64,000 bases of DNA, from positions 736,001 to 800,000 of the forward strand of contig CAXXMV010000008.1 of NCBI GenBank assembly GCA_963662285.2, given 5' to 3'. Shown here piece after piece: positions 20,235 through 52,723 of the stretch (position 1 is its first letter; each line of letters opens with the position of its first letter). The stretch is from a bacterium (GTDB lineage Bacteria > Hinthialibacterota > Hinthialibacteria > Hinthialibacterales > Hinthialibacteraceae). The notes below the pieces were generated by a model. The model saw nothing but the letters and a program-made list of their open reading frames with translations, made no database searches and was not told the DNA's origin. A program made the position numbers and the translations under genes.

Positions 20235-20963
20235 TTTCCTGGTTCAACGTGAACTGGAGAATCACTCGTTCTGAGTTAGCACTTCTTTGTATAATAGTTT
20301 GAGTTTTTTAGGCAAGGGGAAACTATCAATCCAATGAATATCTTTTAATGGGAGGCGTAGAAGGAGTGGCCTTCCACACCCCACTCATCGTCTTGATGAG
20401 TTCCATCCGGCTATCCCTGGCGAGTTGCGCTCCCACAGAGCCCGCGTCCGTTTCACCGGATGCTATCATCTTCTTACATCACGTCAGCCGTGTCAAGAGT
20501 TTGCACGGCCTGCAGGTTGGCCTTTCTCCTTCCCGCGCTGCGTGAAGTTTACGATCCCATTCAGCGAAGATCGTGGGTCCGCGTCCGTCAGAGTTCCTTA
20601 AGACTTTTTTTACCTGAATGTGCTTCTCCATGAGTTCATCGAGTACTTCGTTCTTGCGTTTGAGTTTTTTTCCCAGCGCTGCGATTTTTCTCTCAGCGGT
20701 GGCAGACACGTCACTTGGGTTGGATTAGAAGGCGGCGGCTCCATTTTCAAAGAATTGCTTCTGTCAGCGGTAGAACATGGACGGTTGCAGCCCATACGTC
20801 TCACAGTTATCCGATACCTCCTGCCTGTCCACCAAATGGCGCTTCAAAATCCCGACTTTTCCCTGCGGGGTGCAATGCTTGAGTTTCTTTATGATCTCCT
20901 CCATTCGAATATGCTATGCTAACTCAAATGAAGTATTTCTCCATTTCCGTTTGAAACGGAGCA
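20235..20963 (-). mobile_element. Internally deleted IS3-family remnant
   Basis: orfA-like ILKRHLVDRQEVSD.CE.YGLQPSMFYR*QKQFFENGAAAF*...KNEVLDELM fused to orfB tail IFAEWDRKLHAARE; imperfect IRs ~20235-20261 and 20937-20963. Confidence 0.7.
20363..20460 (-). ncRNA. Putative IS-borne structured RNA, copy A
   Basis: TCCGGT-GAAACGGAC-GCGGG-CTC-TGTG GGAG CGCA-A-CTCGC-CAGGGATA-GCCGGA; covaries with copies at 33338 and 52624. Confidence 0.6.
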
Positions 20964-20975
20964 CGGGAAGGAAGA

Positions 20976-21005
20976 TTGACATGTCACTACTTTGTATGAT
21001 AAAAT
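20976..21005 (+). promoter_or_regulatory. Sigma70-type promoter for the right-hand operon
   Basis: TTGACA-N18-TAAAAT with TGn extended -10; TGACATGTCA palindrome overlaps the -35. Confidence 0.6.
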
Positions 21006-21094
21006 CAGGTGTGATATATTTCAGAATAATTCTGGATTAAATGGAAAATCTTGGACATATTGACTAATTTTTTATATCAATTATAGAGGAATCC

Positions 21095-24000
21095 ATGCTT
21101 CATTGCCCTAAATGCCATTCTTCAGATTTGACATTTCGTAAAAAGAAAAACGTCTATATTTGCGATAACTGCGATCATGAGTTTCATACGAAACAATCAT
21201 TTACCGCAAAGCGGATTTTTATCAGTTACGGACATGATGAACATGCCGCGTTGGCAGAAAAACTCAAAAACGATCTTGAAAAGCGTGGACAACTTGTTTG
21301 GTTCGATCGCAACCGGATTCCGCTGGGGCCGGATTGGGAGCTCAGCATCGAACAAGGTCTGGCTTGGTTGAGAGAGAACAGGGAAAACAGTCTCTTTATC
21401 ATCATCATGACACCCCACTCCGTGCGGCGACCGGATGCTTATTGTCTAAATGAAATAGCTTATGCGGTTTCTAAAAAATTCGACATTTTACCGATCATGC
21501 TGGTATATTGCGAACCGCCACTGTCGATCCTTCGCTATCAATATCTAGATATGCAGGATTGTCTTCCAATCGATATTCACGCAACACGCTATGAGAAGCA
21601 TTTTGAACGACTGTGCCAAGCGATCGAGCAGAACCATCGTGATTTTGAGGGTAATCAAGCATATTTCATGAAGTATCTTGATCCATTTTCGCTCTCATTC
21701 AACGCTCAAGTATTATCGAAATTGCCGAATTTTGTGGGACGAGGGTGGGTGATAGAAGCAATCGACCGCTGGCTCAGCGATCCTGAAGGTTCAAAAGTGT
21801 TTTGGATCAGCGGCAAGGCGGGCATCGGAAAATCATCGTTGTCGGTTTGGCTTGTTGAGAATCGCCCGGAAATCGCCGCCTTTCACATGTGCGAGTATCG
21901 CAACAACAATAAATCCGATCCCAAAATATGTCTGCTGTTTCTAGTTTATCAACTCACCCAAGAACTGCCTGATTACCAGGAGAAACTATTACAGCGCGAC
22001 ATTTCCAAAGACGTGCTGGAAAGCGACGCTTCGACGTTGTTTGATTCGCTAGTGGTTGAGCCGCTTTCGATGATCAAAGCGCCTGAACACAACTTCGTGA
22101 TTTTGATCGATGCGTTGGATGAAGCATCGCAAGGTCGTGTTAACGACCTGGCCGAATTCATCGCCAACGACTTCAAGAAGACGCCTTCCTGGCTACGCCT
22201 CATTGTCACCAGCCGACCAGAGACGAATATCCAGACGTATTTTCAATCCATAGATCCCTTTGATTTGGACAAGGCCAAAGATCAGAACGAAAACGACATC
22301 AAAACCTACTTACAAACTGCCTTGAAGCCGTTTTATCCCGATCAACCCATTTCTTCCGGCGTCTTGCAGACCATCGTCGAAAAAAGCGAGATGGTTTTCA
22401 CCTACGTTCAACAAATCATCCAAGAATTGCACGCAGGCCGACTGTCGTTGGATCGGTTAGATGAATTTCCCCGCGGATTGGGCGAATACTTTTTTACATG
22501 GTTTAAGCGACAATTTCCCGAAGCCGACAAACGCAAGCATGACAGCCAGGGGACCGTAGAGATATACAAAAAGCAATGTCTCCCCTTGTTGGAACTCCTG
22601 GCTGTCGCCCAAGAGCCATTAGCCTTGAATACCATTAAATCGATTTTGAACTGGGGCGATTATGGCGATGACATCATTAACTTTTTCGGTTCATTGCTCA
22701 TCAAGGATGAGACGGTTCATCCCTTTCACAGTTCGCTGATGGATTGGTTGGAAGATTCACAACGGTCGTATCCCTATACCATCCGCGCCATCGCCGGGCA
22801 TCGCCGTATGATGGAGTATGGTTGGGGAGTGTATGAAGACAATGTCCAAACCCTTCCTGTGTATTTTTTAAGGCGCCTTCCTCTTCATCTAATGGCTTTG
22901 GAGGAATGGGATCGTATCCGACAGTTTCTTTGTGAACCGCATATTCTCTCTCATTGGTCGAGGGATAAGCAGCAATATGAATTGCTCGCGCTGTGGCGGC
23001 AAATTGGCGAGGCCCTGGACATGGTCGCTCTATATATGGAGGCGACTGTACATCTGGGGGCATCGGATTTTTCACCTCGGCGAAAGCAGCAGATTTTACG
23101 TTCGATCGCTTCGTTTTTGGCTTTGAACGGTCACTATTCGTCGGCGGAAACTCTTCTTCGACAAGCGTTAGCGATTCTGATGGAATTAGAGGAAGCGTCT
23201 TTGATCGATGTAACCGAATGCAAGGAGGATTTAGCGCGAGTTTATACACATCAATACAAGCAGGCCCCGGCGCTTCGTTTATTTAAGGAAGTGGAAAAAG
23301 CATATGAAAGCGAATTGGGCTTGGATCACTCTGATATGGCAGATTTATTCACCCATATGTCGGATTTGTATTATCAGCAATGCCGATTCACTGAGGCAGC
23401 GCATTATTGCCGTCAGGCTCTTAATATCCATAAGAAACATTTTCACTTCAATCACTCTCTTCTCGCTGATTCGCAGCATGCCTTGGCGAATATCAATCGC
23501 TCTCAAGGGTGTGGTGAAGAAGCGGAATCGCTCTATTTGAGATGTCTGAACATTCACCACGAAAACTTGGGAGATGATCATATCAAGGTCGCCGACGTGT
23601 TGCACGATTTGGCGATTCTCTACTTTCAACAAAATAACATTACGCAAGCGGAATACCATTTCAAACGCGCATTCGAGATTCGCAACCGTTTTTTGGGGGC
23701 GTCTCACCCTCAAATCGCGGATACATTGAGCGCGTTGGCGGACGTCATGGTCTCCAAAGGTGACCTTACGGGCGCCGAACGGTATTATCAAGACGCCTTA
23801 CAGATGCTGGAGACGTCATTCGGCAAAGAAAGCGTAAAGCGGGCGGACGTTATGGAGCGATTCGCCGAGCTCTATATACGTCAGGATCGCTTTGAACCGG
23901 CGATGCGGCTGCTCGATGAAACTCTCTCCATTCGAAATAAGTATTTGGGTCCCATTCAGTTCGACACCATGCGCGCACGGCGTAAGAGAACACAATTACA

Positions 24001-25720
24001 GCTACGTTATGAAGGACTGGATAAAAGAAGTGCGTTTGCTAATCGAAATGAGTTCCTTGATATCGAAAGCAGACTGGCTGAAACGTACGGTCAGGCAATC
24101 TATGATGCATTTGTAGAGAAAAAAAGTCCGGAACCGGGCGATTTACTGCCGCCCCAAACCGCCGTACAGTTACAAAATGATCTTGCCCTACTTAGGGATG
24201 TGATAGAAATACGCTTGTATGCGGATGTTCTTTCCTACACCATGGTTCAATACCGCATTTGTGAGCTCAGTGGAGATTGGGGCGATGTGGGAAAAGACCG
24301 CGCCGATTTTAATTTGATGCAAGTACTGCTTTCTCTTCCGCCCGATGAAGAGATCCAATTTCACCACTATTCACTATATGCAGAGGCGCGAGAGGAATTG
24401 ATGGGAACGCTGCATCTTGATCGCTTGAATAAAGAATCGATCGATGCGTTGAAAAAAAAGATGGAATGGTTCGAGTTAAAGATATTAAACAAAAAATTCA
24501 ATCTGAAATCGAAGGAGATTAATCGAATTCTCGCATGGTTGAAATCCAATCATCGATTGACAAACTCATCGGAATGCTTGTTATGGGGAAGAGCAGATTG
24601 CTTCGGTATGCAAAACAACACAATATCCATCTACCACCATGAGGAGATGCGTTCACCTTTGCTGGCCAATTATTGCGTATCATTTTCGAAAGATACGGAA
24701 ATCATCTTACGTGAAGAAGGGATCAACTATGTGATGTATATCAAATGGGCGAGTGTATTTAATGGTTCGGCGTTTGCGCCGACGGCTAAGGAACAAATCT
24801 CGGATCGTCTAAAACAATGCGCGCTGGAGGCCTGCCGAATCGGAACGCGACGGGATTTTGAACTGCAGAAAGATTTTTTCATCAGCGCCATGATGGAAAA
24901 TATTTTTTATTATGAATTAACCGACAAATCACTCAATGAGGTGGTTGGAAGTATATCCGTTGGAATGCAATCTGGATTAAGGAACTTCCACAATAAAAAT
25001 TTCCTGGCGCACGTGAATTGTCTTACATGCGAATGGCATCCGCTTGTCGATGGCAAAGTCAGCCCCATCGGCAATATTTTAGACACAGCTATCGAGAAGA
25101 GCGATTACAACCGCGCCTTGCAACTTCTATATATCTATCTCAGCGACGGCTGGTTTCTAGACACCGACATCTCTTTTATGTATCCCTATACTCATATTCT
25201 GTACCTTCTTATTCTTCCTTATCTGAAAGAGCCTTTGTATGTCGACTTTGAAATGATGCAAAAGGATTTGCCGACACTGTTTGATTTTATGATAAGTGAA
25301 TATAAGCGAATGCTCGAACATTTGCATAATTTCCTTCTTAAACGAAGTTATATTGATGAGGGAAAAGAATGCCATTTTGAGAATATCAAAGATAAGATTC
25401 TCTGCTTCCAAACACTTTATGAAACGTTGGGTACACATTTCGACACGGAATGGGTGAAATCAATTAATTTTTGGAGAAATTTTTTCAGCAGAGTTCTTCG
25501 AGAAGATCCCTTGTTTCATCAGGCATTGACGATTCAGATCCAAGAATATCAAATGGATTTCTATGCCAAATTGTTGAGTCGTTTTCATGGCCAAAAGCAA
25601 TACGATCCCAGCCCGGCTGGTGTTGAGAATTATATCATCGAACAAATGACGGATCGAGGGTACTCCATTCGAGATAAGCAGATGATCTATCTACCTTTAT
25701 CCGAACTTGGACTCGATTGA
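21095..25720 (+). CDS. Zn-ribbon + TIR + NACHT + TPR protein with an unassigned C-terminal region
   Basis: CPKC...CDNC; IFISYGH, VWFDR, YCLNEIAYA (TIR catalytic Glu); FVGRGW, GKAGIGKS, ILIDALDE, LIVTSRPE (NACHT); 42-aa LG.DH..A TPRs. Confidence 0.9.
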   Translation: MLHCPKCHSSDLTFRKKKNVYICDNCDHEFHTKQSFTAKRIFISYGHDEHAALAEKLKNDLEKRGQLVWFDRNRIPLGPDWELSIEQGLAWLRENRENSLFIIIMTPHSVRRPDAYCLNEIAYAVSKKFDILPIMLVYCEPPLSILRYQYLDMQDCLPIDIHATRYEKHFERLCQAIEQNHRDFEGNQAYFMKYLDPFSLSFNAQVLSKLPNFVGRGWVIEAIDRWLSDPEGSKVFWISGKAGIGKSSLSVWLVENRPEIAAFHMCEYRNNNKSDPKICLLFLVYQLTQELPDYQEKLLQRDISKDVLESDASTLFDSLVVEPLSMIKAPEHNFVILIDALDEASQGRVNDLAEFIANDFKKTPSWLRLIVTSRPETNIQTYFQSIDPFDLDKAKDQNENDIKTYLQTALKPFYPDQPISSGVLQTIVEKSEMVFTYVQQIIQELHAGRLSLDRLDEFPRGLGEYFFTWFKRQFPEADKRKHDSQGTVEIYKKQCLPLLELLAVAQEPLALNTIKSILNWGDYGDDIINFFGSLLIKDETVHPFHSSLMDWLEDSQRSYPYTIRAIAGHRRMMEYGWGVYEDNVQTLPVYFLRRLPLHLMALEEWDRIRQFLCEPHILSHWSRDKQQYELLALWRQIGEALDMVALYMEATVHLGASDFSPRRKQQILRSIASFLALNGHYSSAETLLRQALAILMELEEASLIDVTECKEDLARVYTHQYKQAPALRLFKEVEKAYESELGLDHSDMADLFTHMSDLYYQQCRFTEAAHYCRQALNIHKKHFHFNHSLLADSQHALANINRSQGCGEEAESLYLRCLNIHHENLGDDHIKVADVLHDLAILYFQQNNITQAEYHFKRAFEIRNRFLGASHPQIADTLSALADVMVSKGDLTGAERYYQDALQMLETSFGKESVKRADVMERFAELYIRQDRFEPAMRLLDETLSIRNKYLGPIQFDTMRARRKRTQLQLRYEGLDKRSAFANRNEFLDIESRLAETYGQAIYDAFVEKKSPEPGDLLPPQTAVQLQNDLALLRDVIEIRLYADVLSYTMVQYRICELSGDWGDVGKDRADFNLMQVLLSLPPDEEIQFHHYSLYAEAREELMGTLHLDRLNKESIDALKKKMEWFELKILNKKFNLKSKEINRILAWLKSNHRLTNSSECLLWGRADCFGMQNNTISIYHHEEMRSPLLANYCVSFSKDTEIILREEGINYVMYIKWASVFNGSAFAPTAKEQISDRLKQCALEACRIGTRRDFELQKDFFISAMMENIFYYELTDKSLNEVVGSISVGMQSGLRNFHNKNFLAHVNCLTCEWHPLVDGKVSPIGNILDTAIEKSDYNRALQLLYIYLSDGWFLDTDISFMYPYTHILYLLILPYLKEPLYVDFEMMQKDLPTLFDFMISEYKRMLEHLHNFLLKRSYIDEGKECHFENIKDKILCFQTLYETLGTHFDTEWVKSINFWRNFFSRVLREDPLFHQALTIQIQEYQMDFYAKLLSRFHGQKQYDPSPAGVENYIIEQMTDRGYSIRDKQMIYLPLSELGLD

Positions 25721-25798
25721 AACAGGACGAAACTACTGGAACTGTTGAGCAGTACAGACGACGCGTTCTTGACAAACAGAGCATTAATCGAGGTTTTT

Positions 25799-29842: not shown

Positions 29843-29908
29843 TGAAAATCAAATTTGTTGGAGAGGAAGGTTTAGAATCGAAATTCTTTTTAAGGATCTT
29901 CAGAAAAC

Positions 29909-32386
29909 ATGAACCTACACTGGTATGACGAACAAATTCAACTTTACAAAAAACTTACTTCCCTCTATGAAAAAATGGCGGCGGGATTAAAACGGCGTCT
30001 GCAAATCGCCATGTCCGAGATGGGGATGGACGCTATCGTTCAGGCGCGTGCAAAAACCATCTCCAGCTATGCAGAAAAGATCGTCCGCAAACAGAGCAAA
30101 TATGCCGATCCTATCCGTCTGATCACCGACCTCTGCGGACTGCGCATCATCGTCGAACGATTGGATGAAGTTCGCCGATTGTGCGATTTCATTGAAACCG
30201 AGTTTGAGATTGATGAAGGAAACAGTGAAGATTGCCTCGAACGTCTGAAGATCAATGAGTTCGGCTACTTATCCAATCATTACATCGTGATGTTGACTTC
30301 CCCCGAAAAAGCTGAAGCGTTCGGCATTACGACGAGCGATCTCGATATCATAAAAACAGTCAAGGGGCTGGATTTTCCGATCAAGGCCGAGATCCAAGTA
30401 CGGACGCTACTGCAACATGCATGGGCGGTTTTCATACATAAGCATCTCTATAAAAGGAAATGGAACCTACCGCGGGCGTGGCTCCGCGAAACATCCCGTA
30501 TCTCGGCTATGTTGGAGGATGCGGACGATTCGTTTTCCCGACTGGTCGAGGAAATTGACGTCTATAAGACACAGTACGGCGCCTACATGACGCCAGATCA
30601 GATGAACAGTGAAATCGAGATGCTGCAATTGATTCAACGTTACGATCCCGGTAATGAATCTCTTGCCCGTGAAATTGCTCGAATCGCGAAGGAAAGCGGA
30701 CGCTGGTCATTGGTGGTGGAAACATTATTGCCGTTTCGCGAATCCGCCGATCCCGACTCTCTTCTCGATCTCGGCAACGCCATTTTGCACATGAAAGATC
30801 CGCTCCAAGTCGATGAAGGCCACCGCCTGATTGAGCGCGCCATTGAATTGTCTGCTAAAAACGCACCAGCCTATATCACCTTAGCCCAATTGTGCAGAGA
30901 AAGCGAACAGACAAAACGTTTGCGCTATTACGAAATGGCTTTTCAGGCCGATCCAAACGAACCCATGGCATTTTGTGGTTTTCTGCTAAACAAAATCATA
31001 GCAGAGCGAAATCGAGATTTTCTAGCATTGCTTCGCCCTCTTATAGAAAATGCCGTCAAACGTTGTAATGATCGAATACGCGCCGGTGTCGATGCTTCCT
31101 CTTCGTATTGTCATATCGGAATATTGCAGATGGCGTTGGGTCGAATGGAATCGAGCGCATCCGCCTTTGCCAAAGCGGCGACATTAAAACCGGTTCCTCG
31201 CGTATTTTATGAATATCGAGATTCGGTGCGTTTATTAATAAATCAGGTTAACAATCAATGGCCCGAACTACTCATACTCGACCAACTATTCGATCTCTTC
31301 AACAAAGCAGAGGCGCTTCAAAGCGGTTCAATCTCTGACATTTCAAACGACTTGCAGACGACGAGCCTGATACGGATTCCCGTTGTCATTGTGGCAGGCA
31401 GCTGCAATGAAGATTCGTCTCACCTCATGGAGGCGCATCGAAAATTGATGACAGAATCGTTTCAAGGATTTCAAGGAACAATTGTATCAGGCGGAACCCG
31501 ATCAGGCGTCAGTGGTCTGGTGGGAGATATGTCGTTGGATATGGGCAACGCCGTGAAACTGGGATATATACCCAAAGACATCGAATCAAATCAACTGCAT
31601 CCTGCTTTCCTCATCCGGAGAACGAAGGGATCAACCTTTTCGACGCTGGAACCAATCCAGTATTGGATAGATTTGCTACAATCTGGGATTTGTCCATTGC
31701 AAGTAAAATTGATCGGCTTCGGTGGTGGGGTGCTTTCAGCGTTTGAATATCGCTTGGCGCTGGCAATGGGCGCCTGGGTGGGCATATTGCCTGATAGCAG
31801 GCGTGAAGCCGCCCGCCTGCTGGACGACGATGATTGGAATGGCTCACCGAACCTTCTTCGCATTCCGTTGGATGCTGGGATTTTACGTTCCTTCATTCAC
31901 CCTGCGCCGTCGGCGGCGTTTGCGTCGGATGATCGCGAGCGAATGGCACGGGGCATTCATGGCGAATATCGAAAAAAACATGTGAAGCGATTGCTGCAAT
32001 ACGAGCCTTCCGCCGTCGAGTGGGAATATCTGAGAGACGATTTGAAAGAGTCTAATCGGCGACAGGCCGATCACTATTGCATGACGTTGCAATCGGCCAG
32101 TCTCAACATTCGGAAGGCGCTGAGGAGGAGTGAAATACAAATCATTGAATTCACTGATCGTGAAATAGAAGTCATGGCCGAAAGAGAACATTCGCGTTGG
32201 ACCGTGGAGCGCTTGATGGATGGATGGCGTCTGGGAGAGCAGAACACCGACCGAAAAGAAAGCCCCTATCTGGTCTCCTGGATGGACCTTTCCGACGATA
32301 TTAAGGACTACGACCGAAACGCAGTCAAGGACATTCCACGGATTTTAGAAGAATACGGTTATGAAGTGTATCGTGAAACCATCTGA
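29909..32386 (+). CDS. RelA/SpoT synthetase domain + TPR + SLOG-like Rossmann + RyR-repeat protein
   Basis: RAKTISSYAEK, DLCGLRII, GYLSNHY, EIQVRTLLQHAWA; VVIVAGS, IVSGGTRSGV, GFGGG...FEYRLA (SLOG-like); MARGIHGEY...W..L.DDLKESN and MAEREHSRW...LVSW.DLSDDIKDYDR (RyR). Confidence 0.85.
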   Translation: MNLHWYDEQIQLYKKLTSLYEKMAAGLKRRLQIAMSEMGMDAIVQARAKTISSYAEKIVRKQSKYADPIRLITDLCGLRIIVERLDEVRRLCDFIETEFEIDEGNSEDCLERLKINEFGYLSNHYIVMLTSPEKAEAFGITTSDLDIIKTVKGLDFPIKAEIQVRTLLQHAWAVFIHKHLYKRKWNLPRAWLRETSRISAMLEDADDSFSRLVEEIDVYKTQYGAYMTPDQMNSEIEMLQLIQRYDPGNESLAREIARIAKESGRWSLVVETLLPFRESADPDSLLDLGNAILHMKDPLQVDEGHRLIERAIELSAKNAPAYITLAQLCRESEQTKRLRYYEMAFQADPNEPMAFCGFLLNKIIAERNRDFLALLRPLIENAVKRCNDRIRAGVDASSSYCHIGILQMALGRMESSASAFAKAATLKPVPRVFYEYRDSVRLLINQVNNQWPELLILDQLFDLFNKAEALQSGSISDISNDLQTTSLIRIPVVIVAGSCNEDSSHLMEAHRKLMTESFQGFQGTIVSGGTRSGVSGLVGDMSLDMGNAVKLGYIPKDIESNQLHPAFLIRRTKGSTFSTLEPIQYWIDLLQSGICPLQVKLIGFGGGVLSAFEYRLALAMGAWVGILPDSRREAARLLDDDDWNGSPNLLRIPLDAGILRSFIHPAPSAAFASDDRERMARGIHGEYRKKHVKRLLQYEPSAVEWEYLRDDLKESNRRQADHYCMTLQSASLNIRKALRRSEIQIIEFTDREIEVMAEREHSRWTVERLMDGWRLGEQNTDRKESPYLVSWMDLSDDIKDYDRNAVKDIPRILEEYGYEVYRETI

Positions 32387-32792
32387 ACCTTGGGCGTCAC
32401 CCATTCCAACGGCACGAGTCATCATCGTCAATGAAGAGGGCGCTGTATTGCTATTGAAACGTGGTGAGGGCGACTATGGTGCCGGTCTGTGGTGCTTACC
32501 CGGTGGGAAGGTGGATTATGGAGAATGCCTCAAGGAGGCGGCCCGTCGTGAACTGCATGAAGAAACATCGATCCACCCAGACCATCTACGTTTTTTATTC
32601 TATCAGGATGGATTACCCAAATTTGATCAGGATATGCATTGCATCGAACTTTTTTTTCAATGCGTATACTCCGGTCCCGTCTCCGTCAATTGCGAATCCA
32701 TCGATTTTGCCTGGGTTAAAGAGAAAGGAATACAAGATTATCCTATGGCTTTCAATCACGACCGAGCATTGAGCCGATATTGGGAAACATGA
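32361..32792 (+). CDS. Nudix hydrolase
   Basis: Nudix box GGKVDYGECLKEAARRELHEET; overlaps the upstream stop. Confidence 0.92.
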   Translation: MKCIVKPSEPWASPIPTARVIIVNEEGAVLLLKRGEGDYGAGLWCLPGGKVDYGECLKEAARRELHEETSIHPDHLRFLFYQDGLPKFDQDMHCIELFFQCVYSGPVSVNCESIDFAWVKEKGIQDYPMAFNHDRALSRYWET

Positions 32793-33189: not shown

Positions 33190-33310
33190 TGAAACCTTGC
33201 CATTTGATTATCTGATTCATGGCCTCGCATTTCAATCGCGAGCAGCAGCAAATCATTGAGTATCTGCAGGTTGAGAACGAGGTTCTCCGTGAAAAGTTGG
33301 AGAAAAAGTC
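33190..33310 (+). pseudogene. N-terminal fragment of an integrase-core (IS481/IS3-like) transposase
   Basis: FNREQQQIIEYLQVENEVLREKLEKK resembles the N-terminus of such transposases. Confidence 0.5.
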
Positions 33311-33337: not shown

Positions 33338-33466
33338 GCCAGGTGAAACGGAGGTCGGCTCTGCTGGAGAGCAACCGGCCAAGGGATAACCTGGTGCGTT
33401 TGCGATGGGTGGAAACTGGGGGTGAACTTAAAAAGATTCGCTCCCTGATTCCTTTCAATTCCACCC
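33338..33466 (+). ncRNA. Putative IS-borne structured RNA, copy B
   Basis: GCCAGGT-GAAACGGA-GGTCGG-CTC-TGCT GGAG AGCA-A-CCGGCC-AAGGGATA-ACCTGGT plus a downstream hairpin. Confidence 0.6.
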
Positions 33467-33504
33467 GGAACATTCGCCCATGCCTCACAAAACTCAAATC
33501 ATAA

Positions 33505-34296
33505 CTATGTGTTTTCTTCATCATGCGGTGTTGTTTCCTGTCCAGATTTAGTTTCCATCTTTTGCCGCGTCCGGTATGAGTTGCCTTTGGTGGTGAGAAT
33601 ATGAGCGTGGTGCACGAGGCGGTCCAGCAAGGCGGTGGTTAATTTCTCGCTGCCGAAAACCTGCACCCATTCACTGAAATCCAAGTTGGTCGTCACAATG
33701 GTCGAGCGGCGTTCGTATCGATCCGCCAAAAGATTAAATAGCAACTCGCCTTCGTGTTTGTTGAAAGGAGTGAATCCCAGTTCATCCACAATCAAAAGAG
33801 AAACGCTCAAATAGCGTTGATGCAAACGTCCCAGCGTCCGGTCATCTTTGGCTTCCACCAAATTCCTGACCAGTTCCGATGCTCTCACAAAAACCACCCT
33901 GCATCGACGCCGCGCCGCTTCCATGCCCAGCGCAATGGCCAAGTGTGATTTGCCCGTTCCGATTGGCCCCGCAATAATCACGTCATCCGCGCGATCAATA
34001 AATTCACCACTGGCCAGTTCGAGCACTTTCGGTTTGGATACCCCGCGCAATTTCTGCCAATCAATTTGATCAAGCGTTTTTTGATCGGGGAAACGGGCTT
34101 CCCGAATACGGCGCAAGGCGCTTTTCTCGCGTCGTTCGCGCACTTCCGACTCAAGCAACTGCTTGAGAAATTCTTCATAAGGCCAATCCCCATCCTGCGC
34201 ATGACGCGCTAATTCCGGGTAAAGCCGCACCATGGCGCTGAGTTTAAGTTCTTTCCCATATTCTTCAATCACGGCTTTCAAGGCGCTATTATTCAT
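33505..34296 (-). CDS. istB: IS21-family helper ATPase IstB
   Basis: GPIGTGKSHLA Walker A, LLIVDELG, IVTTNL, ALLDRLVHHA. Confidence 0.93.
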   Translation of the reverse strand: MNNSALKAVIEEYGKELKLSAMVRLYPELARHAQDGDWPYEEFLKQLLESEVRERREKSALRRIREARFPDQKTLDQIDWQKLRGVSKPKVLELASGEFIDRADDVIIAGPIGTGKSHLAIALGMEAARRRCRVVFVRASELVRNLVEAKDDRTLGRLHQRYLSVSLLIVDELGFTPFNKHEGELLFNLLADRYERRSTIVTTNLDFSEWVQVFGSEKLTTALLDRLVHHAHILTTKGNSYRTRQKMETKSGQETTPHDEENT

Positions 34297-35197
34297 GATC
34301 GCCTCCTCGCAACAAAAAATCATAATCGGCGGCGGTCGCTTTTTCGATCACATATTCTGCCAGTTCATCCGGCACGGGAATAGTTAGAGGCGCACTTTGA
34401 TCAATGATATCCATTCGCCCCAACAGACCGGTTCGATCTGCGTCCAGTATGTCCTTAACAGCCTGACTGACCTCTTCCAAAGATGAGTCCAGGATCGCTC
34501 TAAGCACTTTGGCCATTATGCGGGCGGCGTTAATTCCACCGTGTGATTTTTCCAGCAAGTTCCAGAAACGCTGAAATGGTTCGCCTAGTTCCGACATCAA
34601 CTCCGGCGAAAGTTGACGGACTGCTTGCGGCTTTTTGGCGAATTCACGCAGGTAATGAACATAGCGAATCTGCCGCCCCGCTTGTTTTTTCTTTTCATAA
34701 ATAACGGTGATCCCCTGGCAAACAATCCGTATTTCTTCCACGCCGACATAGGCCATCGCTTCCAGGCAAGCCCATTCCGAGGGCAGCGAATACTCGGTTC
34801 CCTCAATGATGGCGGTCGATTTACGGTTGATTGAAATGGGGAGCAAACGGCTTGGATCAAACGGATAAGGCGGCAGGGAATGTAAATAGCGCTGCTCTTC
34901 TTTGATCTTTTCCGCAACCGGTTTCCCGGCGCGATCCTTTTTGGATTGACGAAGTTTCTCAATGTCATGCAAGAGGGCTTGCGATAATTGGGCCAGCGAA
35001 TCGCCGCGCGGAACCGGCGTGAGATGCTGCAAACGAATACCTTTACCCCGGCTTTCCACTCCGCCTTTGTCGTGTCCAACGCCAACCCGCGCAAAGCAGG
35101 GTTCGAATAAATAATGGCTCACCAAGGCGTGGAAGCGTCCGCTTAATTCACGGGCGGGATACATGATGCGTTTTACCGCCGCCGCCAGATCAACCAA
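34289..35197 (-). pseudogene. istA: 5'-truncated IS21 transposase IstA
   Basis: HYLFEPCFA...HDKGGVE, YSLP, HYL...KKPQA; HTH and first catalytic Asp missing; overlaps the istB start. Confidence 0.85.
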
Positions 35198-35619: not shown

Positions 35620-35624
35620 GAGGA

Positions 35625-37258: not shown

Positions 37259-37332
37259 CGCGCCGGAAGGGACTCGAACCCCCAACCGCCTGATCCGAAG
37301 TCAGGTGCTCTATCCAATTGAGCCACCGGCGC
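37259..37332 (-). tRNA. tRNA-Arg (anticodon TCG), no encoded CCA
   Basis: GCGCCGG acceptor stem, D-arm GCTCAATTGGATAGAGC, anticodon arm CCTGA-CTTCGGA-TCAGG, GGTTCGAGTCC T-arm. Confidence 0.95.
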
Positions 37333-41758: not shown

Positions 41759-41799
41759 CAAAATCCGAATTGGGAATTACATTATTTTCAAATCCCACT

Positions 41800-41819
41800 T
41801 TATTACGTACACGTAATAA
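41800..41819. promoter_or_regulatory. Palindromic operator upstream of the MarR gene
   Basis: TTATTACGT-AC-ACGTAATAA; related TTTGT-GT-ACAAA at 42364-42375. Confidence 0.55.
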
Positions 41820-41845
41820 TATATAATATAAGTAAGGCATAAAAA

Positions 41846-42343: not shown

Positions 42344-42384
42344 ACAATTTTGCTTATAAATACTTTGTGTACAAATGAAATGAA

Positions 42385-43230: not shown

Positions 43231-43241
43231 ATTCAAAATCT

Positions 43242-45540: not shown

Positions 45541-45743
45541 AACAAAAAAAAGTTGCCCATAGGTTGATACCACATTCACAAACCTTCTGAATGATTTATA
45601 GTTAAAAGGTTAACATAATATTTTCATCTTTAACACTCATTCAAATATCTCCAAAATGGTATATAATCTATCTATGCAAGCAATATGATCAGATCAAATA
45701 TATTTTAGAATACACCAAATCAAGTGTAACGTTGTGATCCATC

Positions 45744-46514: not shown

Positions 46515-46522
46515 CTCATTCT

Positions 46523-48289
46523 ATGAATGATCCGGGAAAACCACAAGCATATTTCATCGGCAGCGGTTGGGGATGCAGCGAACGCTCAGGTTTCCGTTGC
46601 GTCGCCGATCACATAATCCAGGCCGATTCCATCGACCAGGTAATACCTGCATTGCAAGAAATTGAACAACGCACGCATGATGGTTGGTATGCTTTCGGCT
46701 ACATAGCCTACGAAGCAGCAGCAGCCTTTGGATTACCGGTTTTAACAAATCCATCAGGCCATCCACCACTTTTATGGTTTGGATTATGCAAAACCAATAA
46801 TATCCAGCAGATTGAAATCAGCGACATTGCCATTAGTTCACCGCAATACACCCCACCTGAACTCAAGATAAACCTTACCGAAGAATCCTATATCAGAACA
46901 ATCGCCCGGATAAAACAGCATATCGAACGCGGTGAAACCTATCAGGTCAACTACACTGTTCGCGCAAACTGCATCGGCGCAGAATCAGGCCTGGATTTAT
47001 TTACATACTTATATAGGGCGCAGCCGATTCCCTACGCCGCCTTCATCCAAGACAACGACTGGCAAATCCATTCGCTCTCCCCAGAATTATTCCTCAACAA
47101 ACACAGTTCATTGATTGAATCACGCCCCATCAAAGGAACCATCGGGCGGGGATTGACGCCTGAGCAGGATCAACAAAAAATCGGGCAATTAAAACATAGC
47201 GCCAAAGATCAAGCTGAGAACATCATGATTCTCGACATGATGCGCAATGATTTAGGGCGCATTTGTAAATTGGGCAGCGTCCAATCCCAGAACATTTGCC
47301 GCATGGAGCGCTACCGCTCTCTCTTCCACCTGACCAGCTCAGTGCAGGGAGTACTATCAGATGATTCAACATTGACCAGTATATTCCAAGCAACATTTCC
47401 CGCCGCCTCCATAACCGGCGCTCCCAAGCACCGCACTATGGACATAATCCGCAATTACGAAGACTCGCCCCGCAGCATATATTGCGGCGCCATAGGTTTT
47501 ATCAAACCTGATGGAGATTTCACCTTCAATGTAGCCATTCGTACGATGTACGGTTCAGCGGATGAATACACTCTTGGAGTAGGTGGAGGCATCATCTGGG
47601 ATTCCGATCCACAGATGGAATATGAAGAGGTTAAAACAAAAATGGCCTTCGCCCGAAAGCTGCCAGCCGATTTCCAGTTAATCGAAACGTTGCGGTTGAA
47701 CCAGGATGGAGTTTACTCTTTTTTAGATGAACACCTGAAACGATTATCCCAATCAGCCAACTACTGGGATTATCCCTGTGATGCAAACGCCGCGCAAAAC
47801 GCTCTGCTGGAATATGCTAAAAGCGTTCTTGAACCACCCGCAGCTATCCGTATTGCCCTAAACGCCCAAGGCGGCACAACCATCAACCACCGGCCAATAA
47901 CTCAACCGCCGACAAACCTTCGCGTACAAATTTCATCCACCACGGTAGATTCAAACAATGTTTTCCTATACCACAAAACAACCAACCGTGAATTCTATAA
48001 CAACGCCAGAACAGCCGGACTCAAGCAGGGCTTCTTCGAAACCATATTCGCCAATCAACATAACCACATAACAGAGGGATGCATCACCAACATCTTCTAC
48101 CGTATCGGCGACCACTGGTTTACCCCGCCAATAGAAGACGGCCTGCTTGCCGGAATATGGAGAAGCCAATTCATGACAGAAACCAACGCCGCAGAAAAAT
48201 CCATCACCTCTGAAAAACTAAAAACCGCCGACCAAATCATCATAGGAAATTCGGTCAGCGGCTCAATGATTGTCAATCAAATAGACTAA
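46523..48289 (+). CDS. pabB: Fused aminodeoxychorismate synthase component I / ADC lyase (PabB-PabC)
   Basis: GETYQVN, SPELF, PIKGT, ITGAPK, NVAIRT; C-terminal class IV aminotransferase HKTTNR, EGCITN, GLLAG. Confidence 0.9.
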   Translation: MNDPGKPQAYFIGSGWGCSERSGFRCVADHIIQADSIDQVIPALQEIEQRTHDGWYAFGYIAYEAAAAFGLPVLTNPSGHPPLLWFGLCKTNNIQQIEISDIAISSPQYTPPELKINLTEESYIRTIARIKQHIERGETYQVNYTVRANCIGAESGLDLFTYLYRAQPIPYAAFIQDNDWQIHSLSPELFLNKHSSLIESRPIKGTIGRGLTPEQDQQKIGQLKHSAKDQAENIMILDMMRNDLGRICKLGSVQSQNICRMERYRSLFHLTSSVQGVLSDDSTLTSIFQATFPAASITGAPKHRTMDIIRNYEDSPRSIYCGAIGFIKPDGDFTFNVAIRTMYGSADEYTLGVGGGIIWDSDPQMEYEEVKTKMAFARKLPADFQLIETLRLNQDGVYSFLDEHLKRLSQSANYWDYPCDANAAQNALLEYAKSVLEPPAAIRIALNAQGGTTINHRPITQPPTNLRVQISSTTVDSNNVFLYHKTTNREFYNNARTAGLKQGFFETIFANQHNHITEGCITNIFYRIGDHWFTPPIEDGLLAGIWRSQFMTETNAAEKSITSEKLKTADQIIIGNSVSGSMIVNQID

Positions 48290-48411
48290 TATTTCGTCCA
48301 ACTACATTATGTCATAAAACCAAGTCCCTTCTCCCTCCGGGCTGATCTTAACCCACAAATATCAATATGAGAGATTATGAGAAATCCAATTATCTGAATA
48401 TAGGACAATAA

Positions 48412-48975
48412 CGGGTGCCAAGGGCAGTGTATTTTCTGCCCTTGATTGAGTTTACCTCATTTATTTCCATGGTTTTTATCAACAATTAACATTGAATGAC
48501 GGGCGCCAAGGGCAAGACCGCAATGCGGTCAGCCCTTGATCAAGCCACCTTATCAAAAGGTAAGTTCACTCTAAATTCTCAATCCATAGGTTCAATCAAA
48601 TAAGTAACAATTTCCCCACCGCCAATAGCCAAGGGAAGAATCCCGTTATCCGATGAACCGCTAGCATCCTGAATAGGACGCTCGACCAAGTCGCGGGTGC
48701 CAAGGGCAGTGTATTTTCTGCCCTTGATTGAGTTTACCTCATTTATTTCCATGGTTTTTATCAACAATTAACATTGAATGACGGGCGCCAAGGGCAAGAC
48801 CGCAATGCGGTCAGCCCTTGATCAAGCCACCTTATCAAAAGGTAAGTTCACTCTAAATTCTCAATCCATAGGTTCAATCAAATAAGTAACAATTTCTCCT
48901 CCACTAATGGCAAATGGAAGAATCCCGTTATCCGATGTACCGCTAGCATCCTGAATGGGACGCTCAACCAAGTCG
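48412..48975. repeat. 282-bp tandem duplication containing REP-like palindromes and the 3' end of the GH38 gene
   Basis: Units start CGGGTGCCAAGGGC at 48412 and 48694; hairpins CAAGGGCAG...CTGCCCTTG. Confidence 0.92.
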
Positions 48976-51900
48976 CATTTGCTCCACTCAAATTTCCGCC
49001 ATAGAGGAAATGATATATTGGCGTTAGTAGACTTACCATTCAATTCACGCACCCGGATAATGATGCCATCCGCATTTTCAGCCTTTTTGATGTTCTGAAT
49101 CAACACATTGGGCGTATCCATAGAAGCCAGCGACATGGTTTGATCCGTCAGCAGACCATCTGGATTGATTCCCAAAGGTTCAACGCAGAATGGAGACGTC
49201 ACATGATCAGCGAATTGATTCGCCTGATCGGGCGCCCATGCATCCTTATGAAAAATCATGGAATAACGGAACACCGCCGGACCGCCCTGGCTCGCTTTAT
49301 AATTGGTAAACCAATAATTGTTCATGGCGAAAGAGAACAGATGCGTGTTAACCAACGGAAGATGCTCCAACCAGGGCTGCTCAGCATGCATATCGCAAAG
49401 TTCAACCAATGGAGCGTCATGAGTAACCCAGGTAACTCCATAATCTTTATTGGACGCATCAACCCAACGGCGCACGGTATATATATTACGGTTGGCGCCG
49501 GGAATCTGTTCTGTTTCAGGATGCATCGAAGCCAGGGGAATCTCCAGGGTGAATACTCCCTCAGGAACCTTGAATGGAAAAGCGAACCGCACCGCTTCTT
49601 TGTCGCGGATATCGCTTTTAAGCATGGTATTGATAAAGTCAATCCGGTTTTGCTGAGGATAAAGCCTGATCTCCTGTTGCAGAGATTCAATTCCCTGCCC
49701 TTCAATATGGGCGATCAACGTACCGCTCATACCCAGAGGATCGCGCTTGGATTTCAAGATAACCTGCCGGGCGCTTTTACTATCTTTACCATTAGCGCCC
49801 GATACATGTAGATATTGGTTTAAACCATAAGAACTGTCAGCATCGACTAACTGAAGACTCTCAGGCAGATAAACCAGCGACGAAATGGCGCCGGTTTTCT
49901 TATCCAGTTTCACTTCCCAATCTCCGCCAAGCATCACGCCATCCGATACGTCTATATCAATTGCAGAAACATCCGTTTCACACTTCTCTGGAACAAACTT
50001 AAAGATCGAGTATCCCAATGCAGGAATATCCGCAACCTGGAAAACATATCCTTCATCAGTGCGGATCACCGCTGACCGTTTACCACTGGCATCAACCGCC
50101 GTCCATTGATCAGCAGAAACCAGTTCTCCCAGCGCTGCACTATATGGAATCACGGCCTTACCAGATCGCTTCCACTGGGTCAGGTTCCACACCGCAAAAC
50201 TTAATGGTTGATCATTCTTGATATTGCCGCTTAGGGCTTGCAAGCCGCCCCGCTTTAATTCTGCTGAATACCACAATGCATTATGAGCGAAACTGCGCTT
50301 GGTCTCCCATTGCTTGGTGGCGAATTCGGATTCAGGTTCAGTTATACTGTTATGCGCCCCCCAGGTATGCTCGCTATAAAGCATGGCATAGTCATAACCT
50401 TGTTCGATCTTTTTCGATGGAACCGCTTGTTGAGCACCCAGGGCGTAAGCCAGTGACCATGCTTTTTCTGATTCCTGCATACGAAGCGTCGCCGTGCGGT
50501 TCATCGCGCTTTCCCGCGCAGTCGATCCCGCTCCATCTTCCCAATACGGCGTATAGTCTCCCTTATAAGATGGGATTTGATCTTTATATTTAGATTCCAG
50601 ATACTGCGAAGGCGCCGCCGCGCCGGATAGAATCAAATGTGGAACCTGATATTGCTGATTCCACTCCTGCACCATATTAGAAAGATGATCAGGTGGAGGC
50701 GTATTATCAACTAAATACGCCCGGAACTGCGCCACGTCATAGGGATACGCTTCATCGGCTTCATAGTCAGACAGAACTTGCAGAAACTGAGCAACGCCAT
50801 CTTCTGAACGCAGCATATTGAAATTATTGGAATATCCATAACCCGTATTCCAAACCAAAACCTTACTCACCCCATCCGGTCCAATCCAATAATATGGATG
50901 ATATTTCAACGCTATAGTGGTGAATCCGATGCGGGCGGTATGGTTAGGACCAAGATTAAAATATTTCACGCCGGAACCTGCCAATAAAGGAACCATGCCC
51001 CAGGTATACCCCGGTACATCCGTAATCATGGCCGATACCACTTCCGGGAGGTTTTCACGTTGCGCCAGATGTTTGGAAAAATACACGCTTCGGATAAGTT
51101 CTTCATCACCGCATAAGGCGGTCAGGATATTTCCATACAGCGCGTCAAGCGTAAAGACTCCACTACGCAAATAATCCAACAAACGCTTGCAGTCTTCCTC
51201 CGGTTCAGTGCGTAAAAAATCCTTCAATACCCAGGTCACTTCAGGATTCCAGATATAATGCGCGTCTTTATCATATTTCTTACTGACCGACTCTTCATAT
51301 AAATCCCATGCCTGGCGATAGAATTTTTTATGATCGGCCATAACAATATCCTGGTGGTTGGTATAGCCGATATCAACATGCGATCCCGCCATCAAATAAA
51401 CCCGCCAATCACGGCATGGCTTTACTTTAACTGAGTTTTTATATTCACGTCCGGAAATAATCGCGCGGAATATCACATCACGCGGTTGGTTGGCTCTACC
51501 TACCGCAACCTTTATCCGGCGGGTGGAAGGTTTTTCTATAGACCAGACCGGCTCGGTCGCTTGCTGATCATCATAGACCTCAATCAAATCAAGCGTGTTT
51601 GGATCGACGTAAGCAGGAATGCTTAATTGTAACTCGCGCTTACCGTCTTTATTAACTAGTGGTGGAGAATCAATCTTAAAAAGATGATCGATATATTCGG
51701 TTTCTTCAAATTCTCCCGGCAGAATTACGCTGATGCCTTGGGGAACAATTCCATCAGCATCTTTCAATTGGACGCTAAAATACCATTTCTCTTTACTCTG
51801 GCATATCTTAACCAACAAAGGCTGAGGCCCCTGCCGCACAGAAACCGGGATCACCTCTGCTTTATCAACTGCTCCTTCTGATTTATCATAAACCAGTTTC

Positions 51901-52316
51901 CCTCCCAACCACACTTTGGCGCCATCATCACGCTTGATATGCAACGCCAATTCAAGGTCCTTATCACTTTCCAGAATGCAATAGAAATACGAACAAACTC
52001 CCTCCAGGCCGGGATAACGGTCAGATAACCTGATTTCGGTTTTCTCTTCAAAGAATGGATTCCACAGAAATTGCTTATCCTGAATGATCTCTTTTTTACT
52101 GCGAATTGGTGTAGCGCTGCCCTCACCGGAAAGATAATCCGTGTTATAACCAATCAGCGGTACAGTATCAGTAGCATCATTAATCGGCCCAAGATGCAAC
52201 CATGCGCCTATCGCGCCTTCATCTGATAGTTGAAAAACAACTTCAGGTATGCTCGCATTCGCCATAGACGAAATAAACATCAATAGAAATAATGGATAAA
52301 AGAATTTTGTTCTCAT
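48861..52316 (-). CDS. Secreted GH38 (alpha-mannosidase-like) glycoside hydrolase with a PA14-like N-terminal domain
   Basis: Signal peptide from M52316; DDGAKVWLGG; SHVDIGYT, ITDVPG, YWEDG, SEHTWG. Confidence 0.85.
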   Translation of the reverse strand: MRTKFFYPLFLLMFISSMANASIPEVVFQLSDEGAIGAWLHLGPINDATDTVPLIGYNTDYLSGEGSATPIRSKKEIIQDKQFLWNPFFEEKTEIRLSDRYPGLEGVCSYFYCILESDKDLELALHIKRDDGAKVWLGGKLVYDKSEGAVDKAEVIPVSVRQGPQPLLVKICQSKEKWYFSVQLKDADGIVPQGISVILPGEFEETEYIDHLFKIDSPPLVNKDGKRELQLSIPAYVDPNTLDLIEVYDDQQATEPVWSIEKPSTRRIKVAVGRANQPRDVIFRAIISGREYKNSVKVKPCRDWRVYLMAGSHVDIGYTNHQDIVMADHKKFYRQAWDLYEESVSKKYDKDAHYIWNPEVTWVLKDFLRTEPEEDCKRLLDYLRSGVFTLDALYGNILTALCGDEELIRSVYFSKHLAQRENLPEVVSAMITDVPGYTWGMVPLLAGSGVKYFNLGPNHTARIGFTTIALKYHPYYWIGPDGVSKVLVWNTGYGYSNNFNMLRSEDGVAQFLQVLSDYEADEAYPYDVAQFRAYLVDNTPPPDHLSNMVQEWNQQYQVPHLILSGAAAPSQYLESKYKDQIPSYKGDYTPYWEDGAGSTARESAMNRTATLRMQESEKAWSLAYALGAQQAVPSKKIEQGYDYAMLYSEHTWGAHNSITEPESEFATKQWETKRSFAHNALWYSAELKRGGLQALSGNIKNDQPLSFAVWNLTQWKRSGKAVIPYSAALGELVSADQWTAVDASGKRSAVIRTDEGYVFQVADIPALGYSIFKFVPEKCETDVSAIDIDVSDGVMLGGDWEVKLDKKTGAISSLVYLPESLQLVDADSSYGLNQYLHVSGANGKDSKSARQVILKSKRDPLGMSGTLIAHIEGQGIESLQQEIRLYPQQNRIDFINTMLKSDIRDKEAVRFAFPFKVPEGVFTLEIPLASMHPETEQIPGANRNIYTVRRWVDASNKDYGVTWVTHDAPLVELCDMHAEQPWLEHLPLVNTHLFSFAMNNYWFTNYKASQGGPAVFRYSMIFHKDAWAPDQANQFADHVTSPFCVEPLGINPDGLLTDQTMSLASMDTPNVLIQNIKKAENADGIIIRVRELNGKSTNANISFPLWRKFEWSKCDLVERPIQDASGTSDNGILPFAISGGEIVTYLIEPMD

Positions 52317-52623
52317 TTTTTCCCCTTTTACTCTTTCTTTAAAAAACAAGGAAAATTGCAATCTCTTTATTACATCTTACCAAAATAAAATCCGGAAAAC
52401 CAAGTCTCCTCTCCACCCGGAAGAGGACTAGTACTCTGACCAACTAATTATGTTGAGCGACCTCGTCCCCTCTCCCCACTGTACAGACCGGGTAGATGGG
52501 TAACACATGTTCGGGGACATGGGTTACAGTTTTTTATCAAAACCGGGATTTATCCCAGGTTATTGTTTGAGTTTTTTTTTAGGCATCTAGAGATGCTCAG
52601 GATAATTGGTTGGCTTAGAGGGA

Positions 52624-52723
52624 GGAGGTGAATATTTCACCTCCTGCATTATCCCTCGCACCTCGGATCGGCTATCCCTGGCGGGTTGCACTCCTGCAGC
52701 GCCCGCTTCCGTTTCGCCCAACC
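52624..52723 (-). ncRNA. Putative IS-borne structured RNA, copy C
   Basis: GGC-GAAACGGAA-GCGGG-CGC-TGCA GGAG TGCA-A-CCCGC-CAGGGATA-GCC immediately after the transposase stop. Confidence 0.6.

Follow-up and report, generated by a model that had tools for sequence, protein, structure and literature searches.

The window analyzed here is a 64,000-nucleotide (nt) stretch of a genome from the bacterial phylum Hinthialibacterota (GenBank assembly GCA_963662285.2, contig CAXXMV010000008.1, positions 736,001 to 800,000 of the forward strand), and it carries three copies, A, B and C, of a structured motif beside genes or gene remnants of insertion sequences (ISs). The pattern GAAACGGA-N(12-14)-GGAG-N(10-13)-AGGGATA has exactly three matches in the window, at 20412-20454 (-), 33345-33388 (+) and 52673-52715 (-), and none in 100 dinucleotide shuffles of the window. 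The original prediction, made from the letters of the window, had placed three cores of ~55 nt at these sites, with three stems and the unpaired blocks GAAACGGA, GGAG and AGGGATA in common, and had proposed a structured noncoding RNA (ncRNA) carried by ISs of several families. The cores (~60 nt), blocks and stems were all recovered in copies A, B and C, where chance predicts none, and the proposal itself is supported by covariation, by positioned promoters and by carriage within IS repeats. Judged from its sequence, each site is a copy of a predicted small RNA gene of ~150-220 nt that has its own predicted promoter and rides as a passenger of an IS. The RNA lies between the 3' end of a transposase gene (or of istB) and the nearby terminal repeat, in either orientation. 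The features are collected in Table 1.

Table 1. Features of the three RNA copies, their host elements and neighboring genes, in window coordinates
Feature	Position	Strand	Remarks
Copy A, domain 1	20404..20462	-	P1 CATCCGGT/GCCGGATG, GAAACGGA, P2, P3 with GGAG loop, AGGGAUA
Copy A, domain 2	20403-20316	-	folds
Copy A, tail	20315-20301	-	UUGCCU-A6-CUC
Copy A, promoter-like site	20468..20496	-	TTGACA-17-GAAGAT (TTGACA 20496-20491); weak -10
Copy A, IS3-type terminal repeat	20237..20253	-	TTCACGTTGAACCAGGA; same end in many co-directional homologues
Copy A, rve-type transposase C-terminal remnant	20521..20589	-	DGRGPTIFAEWDRKLHAAREGER; tblastn
Copy B, domain 1	33338..33395	+	P1 GCCAGGT/ACCTGGT; subclass with extra A before AGGGAUA
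Copy B, domain 2 and tail	33396..33495	+	tail AUGCCUCACAAAACUC at 33480-33495
Copy B, host genes of the IS21 family	33505..35197	-	convergent to the RNA
istB	33505-34323	-	IstB_IS21, E=4e-76
istA-like open reading frame	34289-35197	-	Mu-transpos_C_2, weak
Copy C, domain 1	52664..52724	-	5' loop GAAACGGA, P2, P3 with GGAG loop, 3' loop AGGGAUA
Copy C, P1	52724-52716 with 52672-52664	-	imperfect
Copy C, domain 2	52587..52663	-	long imperfect helix; apical hairpin GCAGGAGGTG...CACCTCCTCC
Copy C, tail	52569..52586	-	AUGCCU-A9-CUC; pairs with AGGGAU (PK2) and the GGAG loop (PK1)
Copy C, -35-like site TTGGCA	52753..52758	-	sequence and simple promoter scan
Copy C, -10-like site CACAAT	52736-52731	-	inside last codons of the transposase gene
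Copy C, intrinsic-terminator-like hairpin	52558-52543, T run to 52535	-	CTGGGATAAATCCCGG; 10 nt after the tail
Copy C, host IS481-like IS, 1507 bp	52480..53986	-	~50-bp inverted repeats TGTA...TACA; GTGGG on both flanks
Copy C, rve/IS481-type transposase, 388 amino acids	52729-53895	-	18 copies of the element in the genome
Weak NUDIX-like open reading frame and TrkA_N-RyR protein	17410-20210		
TIR-NPHP3/NACHT-TPR protein, 1541 amino acids	21095-25720		
RelA_SpoT-TPR-RyR protein	29909-32386		followed by a NUDIX gene, 32361-32792

The core forms domain 1 of the predicted RNA and consists of the stems P1, P2 and P3. The ~55-nt unit first described is real as a core, but the full unit is about three times longer and doubly pseudoknotted. 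Domain 2 follows P1 as a long, imperfect and variable helix enclosing a variable apical hairpin; RNAalifold of 16 full-length sequences predicts 28 pairs in this domain (20 with double changes, some long-range), and single-sequence folds agree with the helix. A second hairpin of the type GG(A/G)GTG, said to follow each core, is present in all three copies, but its sequence is not the conserved part and it is merely the tip of the domain-2 helix. The first list of features lacked the conserved 3' tail that follows domain 2 in copies A, B and C. In nearly every copy this tail, AUGCCU-N(0-5)-A(4-9)-CUC, comes 45-190 nt after the core. Its CUC pairs with the P3 loop (pseudoknot 1, PK1) and its AUGCCU with AGGGAU (pseudoknot 2, PK2).

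Homologues were taken from a scan of one genome per species, with at least 113 loci; ~13 chance matches without P1/P3 pairing were dropped before all counts (L031, L043, L051, L064, L066, L071, L078, L094, L121, L130, L133, L136 and L138). An alignment of 80 distinct cores was scored against a model with 7 base pairs in P1, 6 in P2 and 4 in P3 with its GGAG loop. Paired cells made up 87.8% compared with 69.9% after shuffling, and double-sided changes were found in 16 of the 17 pairs. The covariation score was 0.544 compared with 0.202 for shuffled alignments; none of 500 shuffles reached 0.544, and the score fell to 0.13 or below once the partners were slid by 1-3 columns. The compensatory change reported for the three copies is thus borne out in a larger alignment. 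G-U pairs are frequent in the core stems, for example 16 U-G at the pair closing P1. About 25 unpaired nucleotides are near-invariant and are kept across roughly a dozen phyla. Core lengths of 61 and 62 nt are both common and differ by one extra A before AGGGAUA.

A conserved peptide frame, GETEAGSAGEQPARD, had been named from the start as a possible source of the conservation. The transposase frame does stay open through domain 1 in some co-directional copies. The common 1-nt indel before AGGGAUA would shift that frame, a stop lies 5 codons upstream in the D-type copies described below, in copy C the stop codon of the transposase precedes P1 by 5 nt, and convergent copies have no gene on that strand. 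The indel polymorphism, the stop codons and the compensatory stem substitutions rule the frame out, and no open frame of the kind that marks a small protein is kept across the homologues. This explanation has been refuted, and its probability is close to nil.

Signals for transcription were sought in 91 unique homologous upstream regions of 120 nt, with positions counted relative to GAAACGGA. Among the matches listed, TTGAC starts at -43 to -41 in 22 of the 91 regions and at any other position in 6, and a Bacteroidota-type TAnnTTTG starts at -19 or -18 in 8. These phylum-specific signals at a fixed distance point to a promoter matched to the phylum of the host, from which the predicted RNA would begin at the foot of P1. 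The frequent G-U pairs together with the positioned promoters fix the RNA strand as first stated. TTG(A/G)CA had been reported upstream of copies A and C as expected for a dedicated promoter; both boxes are present, but a simple promoter scan accepts copy C only (TTGGCA-16-CACAAT, 52758-52731). The same simple scan accepted no promoter and found no terminator-like hairpin for copies A and B. In copy C the promoter-like and terminator-like sites are ~190 nt apart, which gives a predicted RNA of ~190 nt. At many co-directional loci, for instance L026, L032, L040 and L117, the PK1 strand is immediately followed by a GC-rich hairpin whose triloop is C(GAA)G or C(GGA)G, as in CCGCCC-GAA-GGGCGG, and many lineages have a stable hairpin in this place. 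The GC-rich hairpin may mark the 3' end of the RNA or be one more of its conserved parts. Many convergent copies have a hairpin followed by a U run inside domain 2. The hairpins after the tail or inside domain 2 overlap PK1 by 1-2 nt at most, and the U run is often absent.

The fold could also act at the level of DNA, as a single strand recognized by the transposase or in copy-out replication, for example as a priming or binding signal. G-T wobbles are tolerated in single-stranded DNA, mini-hairpins of the C(GAA)G type follow the tail in many lineages, and all host elements are generally described as moving by replicative copy-out-paste-in. Such a signal is nonetheless improbable: promoters specific to the phylum lie at a fixed distance, the ends resemble terminators, tertiary covariation of this elaboration is without precedent in DNA signals, and the position and orientation relative to the IS end vary.

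In copy C the RNA begins 5 nt past the stop codon of the IS481-like transposase gene and shares its strand; in keeping with the original placement, it is enclosed by the inverted repeats of an element at 52480-53986. Both IS481-like elements of this genome (C-type and D-type, see below) are inserted in REP-like palindromes, CCCTCTCCC...GGGGAGAGGG or AACCCCCTC...GGGGGAGAGGGGTT, which in the window stand at 52470-52489 and 53971-54000; the two ISs seem to target this host palindromic repeat.

Copy A had been placed between the 3' end of an IS3-family transposase gene and the IS end. The IS3-like end was confirmed, but the transposase is a remnant comprising the last ~25-50 codons. In tblastn the remnant matches the C-termini of two rve transposases with E=0.002 and 0.019, and with E=1e-7 when the read-through of the RNA is included. 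Because these last ~25-50 rve codons lie upstream and an IS3-type end lies downstream, copy A is read as the 3' stub of a truncated IS. For copy B a position 3' of a transposase gene had been given with an uncertain host. Its tail ends 9 nt short of the istB stop codon on the opposite strand, so the RNA does adjoin a 3' end, but it is convergent to the gene and the host is an IS21 element. The frame EQQQIIEYLQVENEVLREKLEKK (33240-33310, +), which precedes copy B, resembles the leucine-zipper end of an IS3-type OrfA; read by eye and with a weak tblastn match, it looks like a frame cut off by the IS21 element. Around copies A and B, the genes of the window between 17410 and 32792 are defense- or signalling-like in look (Table 1).

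The genome of the window (7.29 Mb, 8 contigs) contains 25 copies of the RNA by pattern search, and a control with the reversed pattern over the same genome gave 0 matches. The covariance-model search that had been proposed recovered the same 25 copies and no others. The copies fall into four sequence variants, namely 18 of C-type, 5 of D-type (none in the window) and the singletons A and B. Any two of the four modules are 72-77% identical, and no grouping by IS family could be shown. The C-type repeated unit is ~1.5 kb long with repeats at both ends. The D-type unit, of ~1.8 kb, is another IS481-like element, and its transposase shares 35% identity with that of C-type. The RNA of this unit is placed between the 3' end of the transposase gene and the terminal repeat and is convergent to the gene, and the RNA region includes a canonical hairpin followed by T8. 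All PF00665 (rve) hits in this genome (23/23) lie in C-type or D-type elements and carry the RNA, and the repeat cluster holding both units comprises 23 intervals, 22 of them with the motif. No RNA was found in the other multicopy repeats of the genome, which are ISL3 (11 intervals), Transposase_29 (10) and DDE_Tnp_1_2/DUF772 (7). In the genome of the window the RNA is tied to rve-type elements.

Outside this genome the RNA was found in Acidobacteriota, Bacteroidota, Planctomycetota, Cloacimonadota, Verrucomicrobiota, Lentisphaerota, Nitrospirota, Armatimonadota and Sumerlaeota, in Spirochaetota and Desulfobacterota-type bins, and in Magnetococcales and Competibacteraceae (about a dozen phyla in all, from record titles), and at least 119 metagenome loci match as well. 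In the phylum of the window the distribution is patchy, with 18 of 35 genomes carrying 1-25 copies each. Five other carriers have 1, 1, 2, 14 and 35 copies, and another five have one copy each. A 1.55-kb IS3 element, present in 8 copies in a Saprospiraceae genome, holds the RNA between its inverted repeats, and there the RNA is convergent to orfB. The association with IS ends, which was to be checked, is thus seen within the terminal repeats of two IS481-like elements and one IS3 element; in C-type, D-type and the Saprospiraceae IS3 the RNA is copied with the element, as an IS passenger would be.

The neighborhoods of 78 loci were compared with Pfam using 135 flanking open reading frames (ORFs) from flanks of at most 600 nt (300 nt for about one third). 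An rve domain adjoins 33 of the 78 loci, 21 upstream on the same strand and 12 convergent as read from ORF positions, and IstB or IstA adjoins 3, which brings rve/IS21 to 36 of 78. At one Bacteroidota locus (L091) the RNA is flanked by an IstA-like C-terminal ORF and by the beginning of istB; it is encoded on the opposite strand and therefore sits within the IS21 operon, not at its end. Some single-copy loci have no transposase within 1.5 kb; these may be remnants, like copy A. A few orphan copies precede unrelated genes. At L055, in a Spirochaetota bin, the core lacks both domain 2 and the tail and runs directly into the beginning of a truncated NifU/IscU-like ORF; this locus is probably a remnant or the product of a chimeric assembly.

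The IS110-type domain Transposase_20 adjoins 1 of the 78 loci, and a second IS110-like C-terminus was seen by eye. At L060, L120, L125, L127 and L044, IS110-family transposase genes come directly after the tail (CUCC|AGCAG...); instead of true hosts, they may be insertions into the hairpin usually found behind the tail. These genes bring to mind a programmable guide RNA. Like the bridge RNA of IS110, the seekRNA of IS1111 and the omega RNA of IS200-IS605, the RNA described here is structured and noncoding, measures 150-200 nt, is encoded next to a transposase gene at one end of an IS and has its own predicted promoter. Those RNAs have element-specific guide loops and work with DEDD recombinases or TnpB/IscB nucleases, whereas the loops of the IS RNA are invariant between elements with different ends and targets, no element-specific guide segment was recognized, and the partners are DDE transposases of the rve type with no TnpB or IscB nearby. 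Pairing to the 5' region of the transposase gene was no better than shuffled, with duplex energies of -76.5 compared with -64.0 +/- 6.8 for C-type and -57.7 compared with -61.8 +/- 5.3 for D-type, neither being significant. A guide function is accordingly most improbable. The same comparison bears on the RNA-OUT of IS10 and the art200 of IS200, which are likewise small RNAs encoded by ISs and plausibly limit transposition. Each of them is specific to its element and antisense to the transposase mRNA at its 5' end; the IS RNA is located at the 3' end, its conservation spans IS families and phyla, and its complementarity to the 5' region is not significant.

The pseudoknots were examined in two sets that differ in the P3 loop. 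The GGAG loop of the genome set was fixed by the search and so was not free to vary. The metagenome set was collected by a P3 string with a GAGG loop, leaving the internal loops free, and comprises at least 119 loci with 114 unique cores; 82 of these were parsed, 57 of them with a parsed tail, and 32 of the 114 (class III, truncated or divergent) were left out of the loop tables. For PK1, among the matches listed, the tail triplet is CUC in 55 of 57 parsed members of the genome set and CCU in 55 of 61 of the metagenome set, and an acidobacterial lineage combines a GGGA loop with a UCCC tail. For PK2, 3'-loop position 3 and tail position 4 are G/C in 42, C/G in 12 and otherwise in 3 (n=57), which none of 2000 shuffles reached. 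From this swap of G/C for C/G it follows that AGGGAU pairs with AUGCCU and AGCAAU with AUGGCU. Position 4 of PK2 is never Watson-Crick; the tail G is always opposite a purine, as one fixed purine-G mismatch. The covariation of PK1 and PK2 therefore lays the tail antiparallel along the 3' half of the core in the order PK2, A tract opposite P2/P3, and PK1. In addition, 5'-loop position 4 against 3'-loop position 4 gives A/G 35, G/A 45 and other 2, and 5'-loop position 5 against 3'-loop position 3 gives C/G 62, A/C 17 and other 3 (n=82 in both), so that 5'-loop position 5 tracks the PK2 pair, C with G-C and A with C-G. By this comparison the GAAACGGA strand of the 5' internal loop is a putative third strand covarying with PK2.

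The internal loops and tails define four classes. Class Ia has the 5' loop GAAACGGA, the 3' loop AGGGAUA and the tail AUGCCU; class Ib has GAAGCGGA, AGGAAUA and AUGCCU; class II has GAAGAGGA, AGCAAUA and AUGGCU; and class III has GGAGAGGAUA, GAGCGCU and AGCG-N-AAACCU. The P3 hairpin and its flanks, GCUC-UGCU-RRRG-AGCA-AC, are kept in all of them, and the classes recur with many different P1 and P2 sequences. Class II also occurs in a Saprospiraceae genome. Class III (L227, L237, L258, L261, L272, L279, L287, L300, L306 and others) retains P1, the P3 hairpin and domain 2; its P2 has only 2-3 base pairs, its A-rich tail ends in CCU, and IS-type ends follow. At two loci (L183 and L190) of one genome (G012), which holds at least 10 such copies, the P3 loop is GUAG and the tail is still CUC.

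The architecture raises the prospect of a new self-cleaving or otherwise catalytic RNA that would process transcripts at the transposase-distal end of the element. The core is compact and doubly pseudoknotted with invariant unpaired purines, a tail G stands opposite a purine in every class, the peripheral domain varies freely, and residence in mobile elements is shared with several known small ribozymes. Twister and HDV-like ribozymes also have a doubly pseudoknotted core, a variable peripheral helix and a home in mobile DNA; the IS RNA differs in having no covariance-model match and in that both of its pseudoknots are made by the 3' tail. No ribozyme family of Rfam 15 matches it, no cleavage site can be named, and from class to class (Ia, Ib, II and III) the core sequence varies more than an active site usually does. 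A catalytic role thus seems unlikely.

The RNA had been called unassignable to a known family, and the cmscan comparison with Rfam 15 (4227 models), run as had been suggested, likewise matched no family to it. At gathering thresholds the window gave only a tRNA (37259-37332), and copies A and C at E<=10 gave only chance alignments of at most 18.7 bits. Twenty diverse genome loci at E<=1 gave only a tRNA, and 20 metagenome loci gave one chance hit and two near-threshold Acido-Lenti-1 hits 250-280 nt away from the RNA. These two near-matches (L300:9-53, -, and L279:600-618, +; 35.2 bits, the gathering score being 37) are located on the downstream side of class III RNAs, apparently outside the IS, and the site may be a neighboring repeat or an insertion target. 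Nor was a description of the RNA found in the accessible portions of the full-text literature; it may sit among the 250 'mobile/repeat sequence candidates' of PMC11109978 or in PMC5737381. None was met in the accessible portion of 10.64898/2026.10.21.760802. In the alignment supplements of Weinberg et al. (2010; PMC2864571), one file of which was available only in part, the P3 string CUGGAGAGCAAC occurs 0 times, and the joint occurrence of GAAACGGA and AGGGAUA in the accessible part of that source is the unrelated Flavo-1 motif. The RNA family is apparently uncatalogued.

The original prediction had listed a decoy for CsrA among the possible functions. Such a decoy would titrate CsrA/RsmA by exposing several GGA motifs, as CsrB and RsmZ do, and ACGGA, GGAG and AGGGA do stand in loops, with more GGA in domain 2. 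The genome of the window has one csrA gene, and a weak, non-significant alignment to PrrB/RsmZ was obtained (10.3 bits, E=6). The GGA loops of the IS RNA are engaged in PK1 and PK2, and classes II and III have AGCAAUA or GAGCGCU in place of AGGGAUA. CsrA (PF02599) was not found in 5 of 5 other carrier genomes, for which completeness is not reported (three Bacteroidota, one Acidobacteriaceae and one Oligosphaera). The decoy option is largely refuted and has very little probability left. The RNA could be assigned to none of the known kinds considered, and its structure, distribution and host association are well supported.

With regard to function, we tentatively favor a regulatory RNA that would sense a ligand or factor and govern its element in the manner of a riboswitch, as a possibility that is open to serious doubt. 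The compact, triple-stranded and doubly pseudoknotted core would form a pocket for a conserved cellular ligand or factor, and its folding or occupancy would set how much transcription from the RNA's own promoter passes the internal or following hairpins. Read-through would run antisense into the transposase gene in convergent copies; in co-directional copies it would cross the terminal repeat and, in a circular or tandem form of the element, enter the transposase gene. Transposition of the rve-type elements (IS3, IS481 and IS21) would thereby be tied to the state of the cell. The complex conserved core with covariation is what a riboswitch aptamer would have. The aptamers of the preQ1-I/II and SAM-II riboswitches share with it the pairing of a hairpin loop with a 3' tail, an A-rich strand along a helix, a triple-like three-way covariation and a small, highly conserved core. 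The IS RNA differs from them in that it has no Rfam match, its tail is separated from the core by a hairpin of 80-150 nt, a second pseudoknot reaches an internal-loop strand, no regulated ORF follows and it resides in ISs. A broader proposal, which we regard as doubtful, is that of a superfamily of riboswitch- or ribozyme-grade RNAs for rve transposons, in which classes Ia, Ib, II and III would keep the fold and change the pocket, and possibly the specificity.

Several points weigh against such a sensor. The RNA is not found in the 5' untranslated region of a coherent gene set; it is followed by the end of the IS or by a convergent transposase gene, 3' end first, and no gene downstream is consistently regulated. 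What the RNA brings about would depend on its orientation, and this suits an RNA acting in trans no less well. The hairpin after the tail in most cases borders on PK1 instead of competing with it and usually lacks a U run, so no classic terminator/antiterminator switch can be seen. In those convergent copies that have a strong terminator inside domain 2, the tail would often be left untranscribed. Since the GUAG lineage, with its weakened PK1, has multiplied, the fold is not strictly needed for spread. No public RNA run was found for the sequence, so the transcript ends are predicted, and the covariation counts ignore the relatedness of the sequences. Moreover, well-studied IS3, IS481 and IS21 elements transpose without any known RNA of this kind.

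Nearly as likely as the sensor, although this too is far from probable, is an RNA that acts in trans by binding a protein partner. Candidate partners are the rve catalytic core common to IS3, IS481 and IS21 transposases, RNA polymerase and other universal host factors, and the RNA would serve as cofactor, decoy or scaffold, either for the transpososome or in controlling it. A function independent of orientation suits the 21 co-directional and 12 convergent loci, and the link to rve is strict, with 23 of 23 rve genes compared with 0 of 3 other multicopy IS families. The RNA's own predicted promoter and the almost invariant P3 hairpin and flanks over classes I-III speak for it as well. It is harder to reconcile with RNAs that adjoin IS110-type transposases and one transposase without Pfam hits, or with transposase DNA-binding domains that differ widely while the RNA core is conserved, and the three-strand covariation suggests a pocket more than a simple protein site.

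IS3, IS481 and IS21 are among the commonest bacterial mobile elements. They are generally described as holding transposase genes and terminal repeats only. A conserved RNA gene whose tertiary structure matches riboswitches and small ribozymes in complexity points to an unrecognized layer of transposon biology, in which RNA regulation, sensing or catalysis would take place in classical DDE elements. The fold is well defined and lends itself to structural studies and to the search for ligands, and its natural classes exchange core nucleotides in concert. If the RNA were merely stabilizing or insulating, it would still fill a gap in the RNA catalogue and improve the annotation of ISs. If it is a common sensor or cofactor of IS3, IS481 and IS21, it would give DDE transposition its first known control by a metabolite- or factor-sensing RNA.

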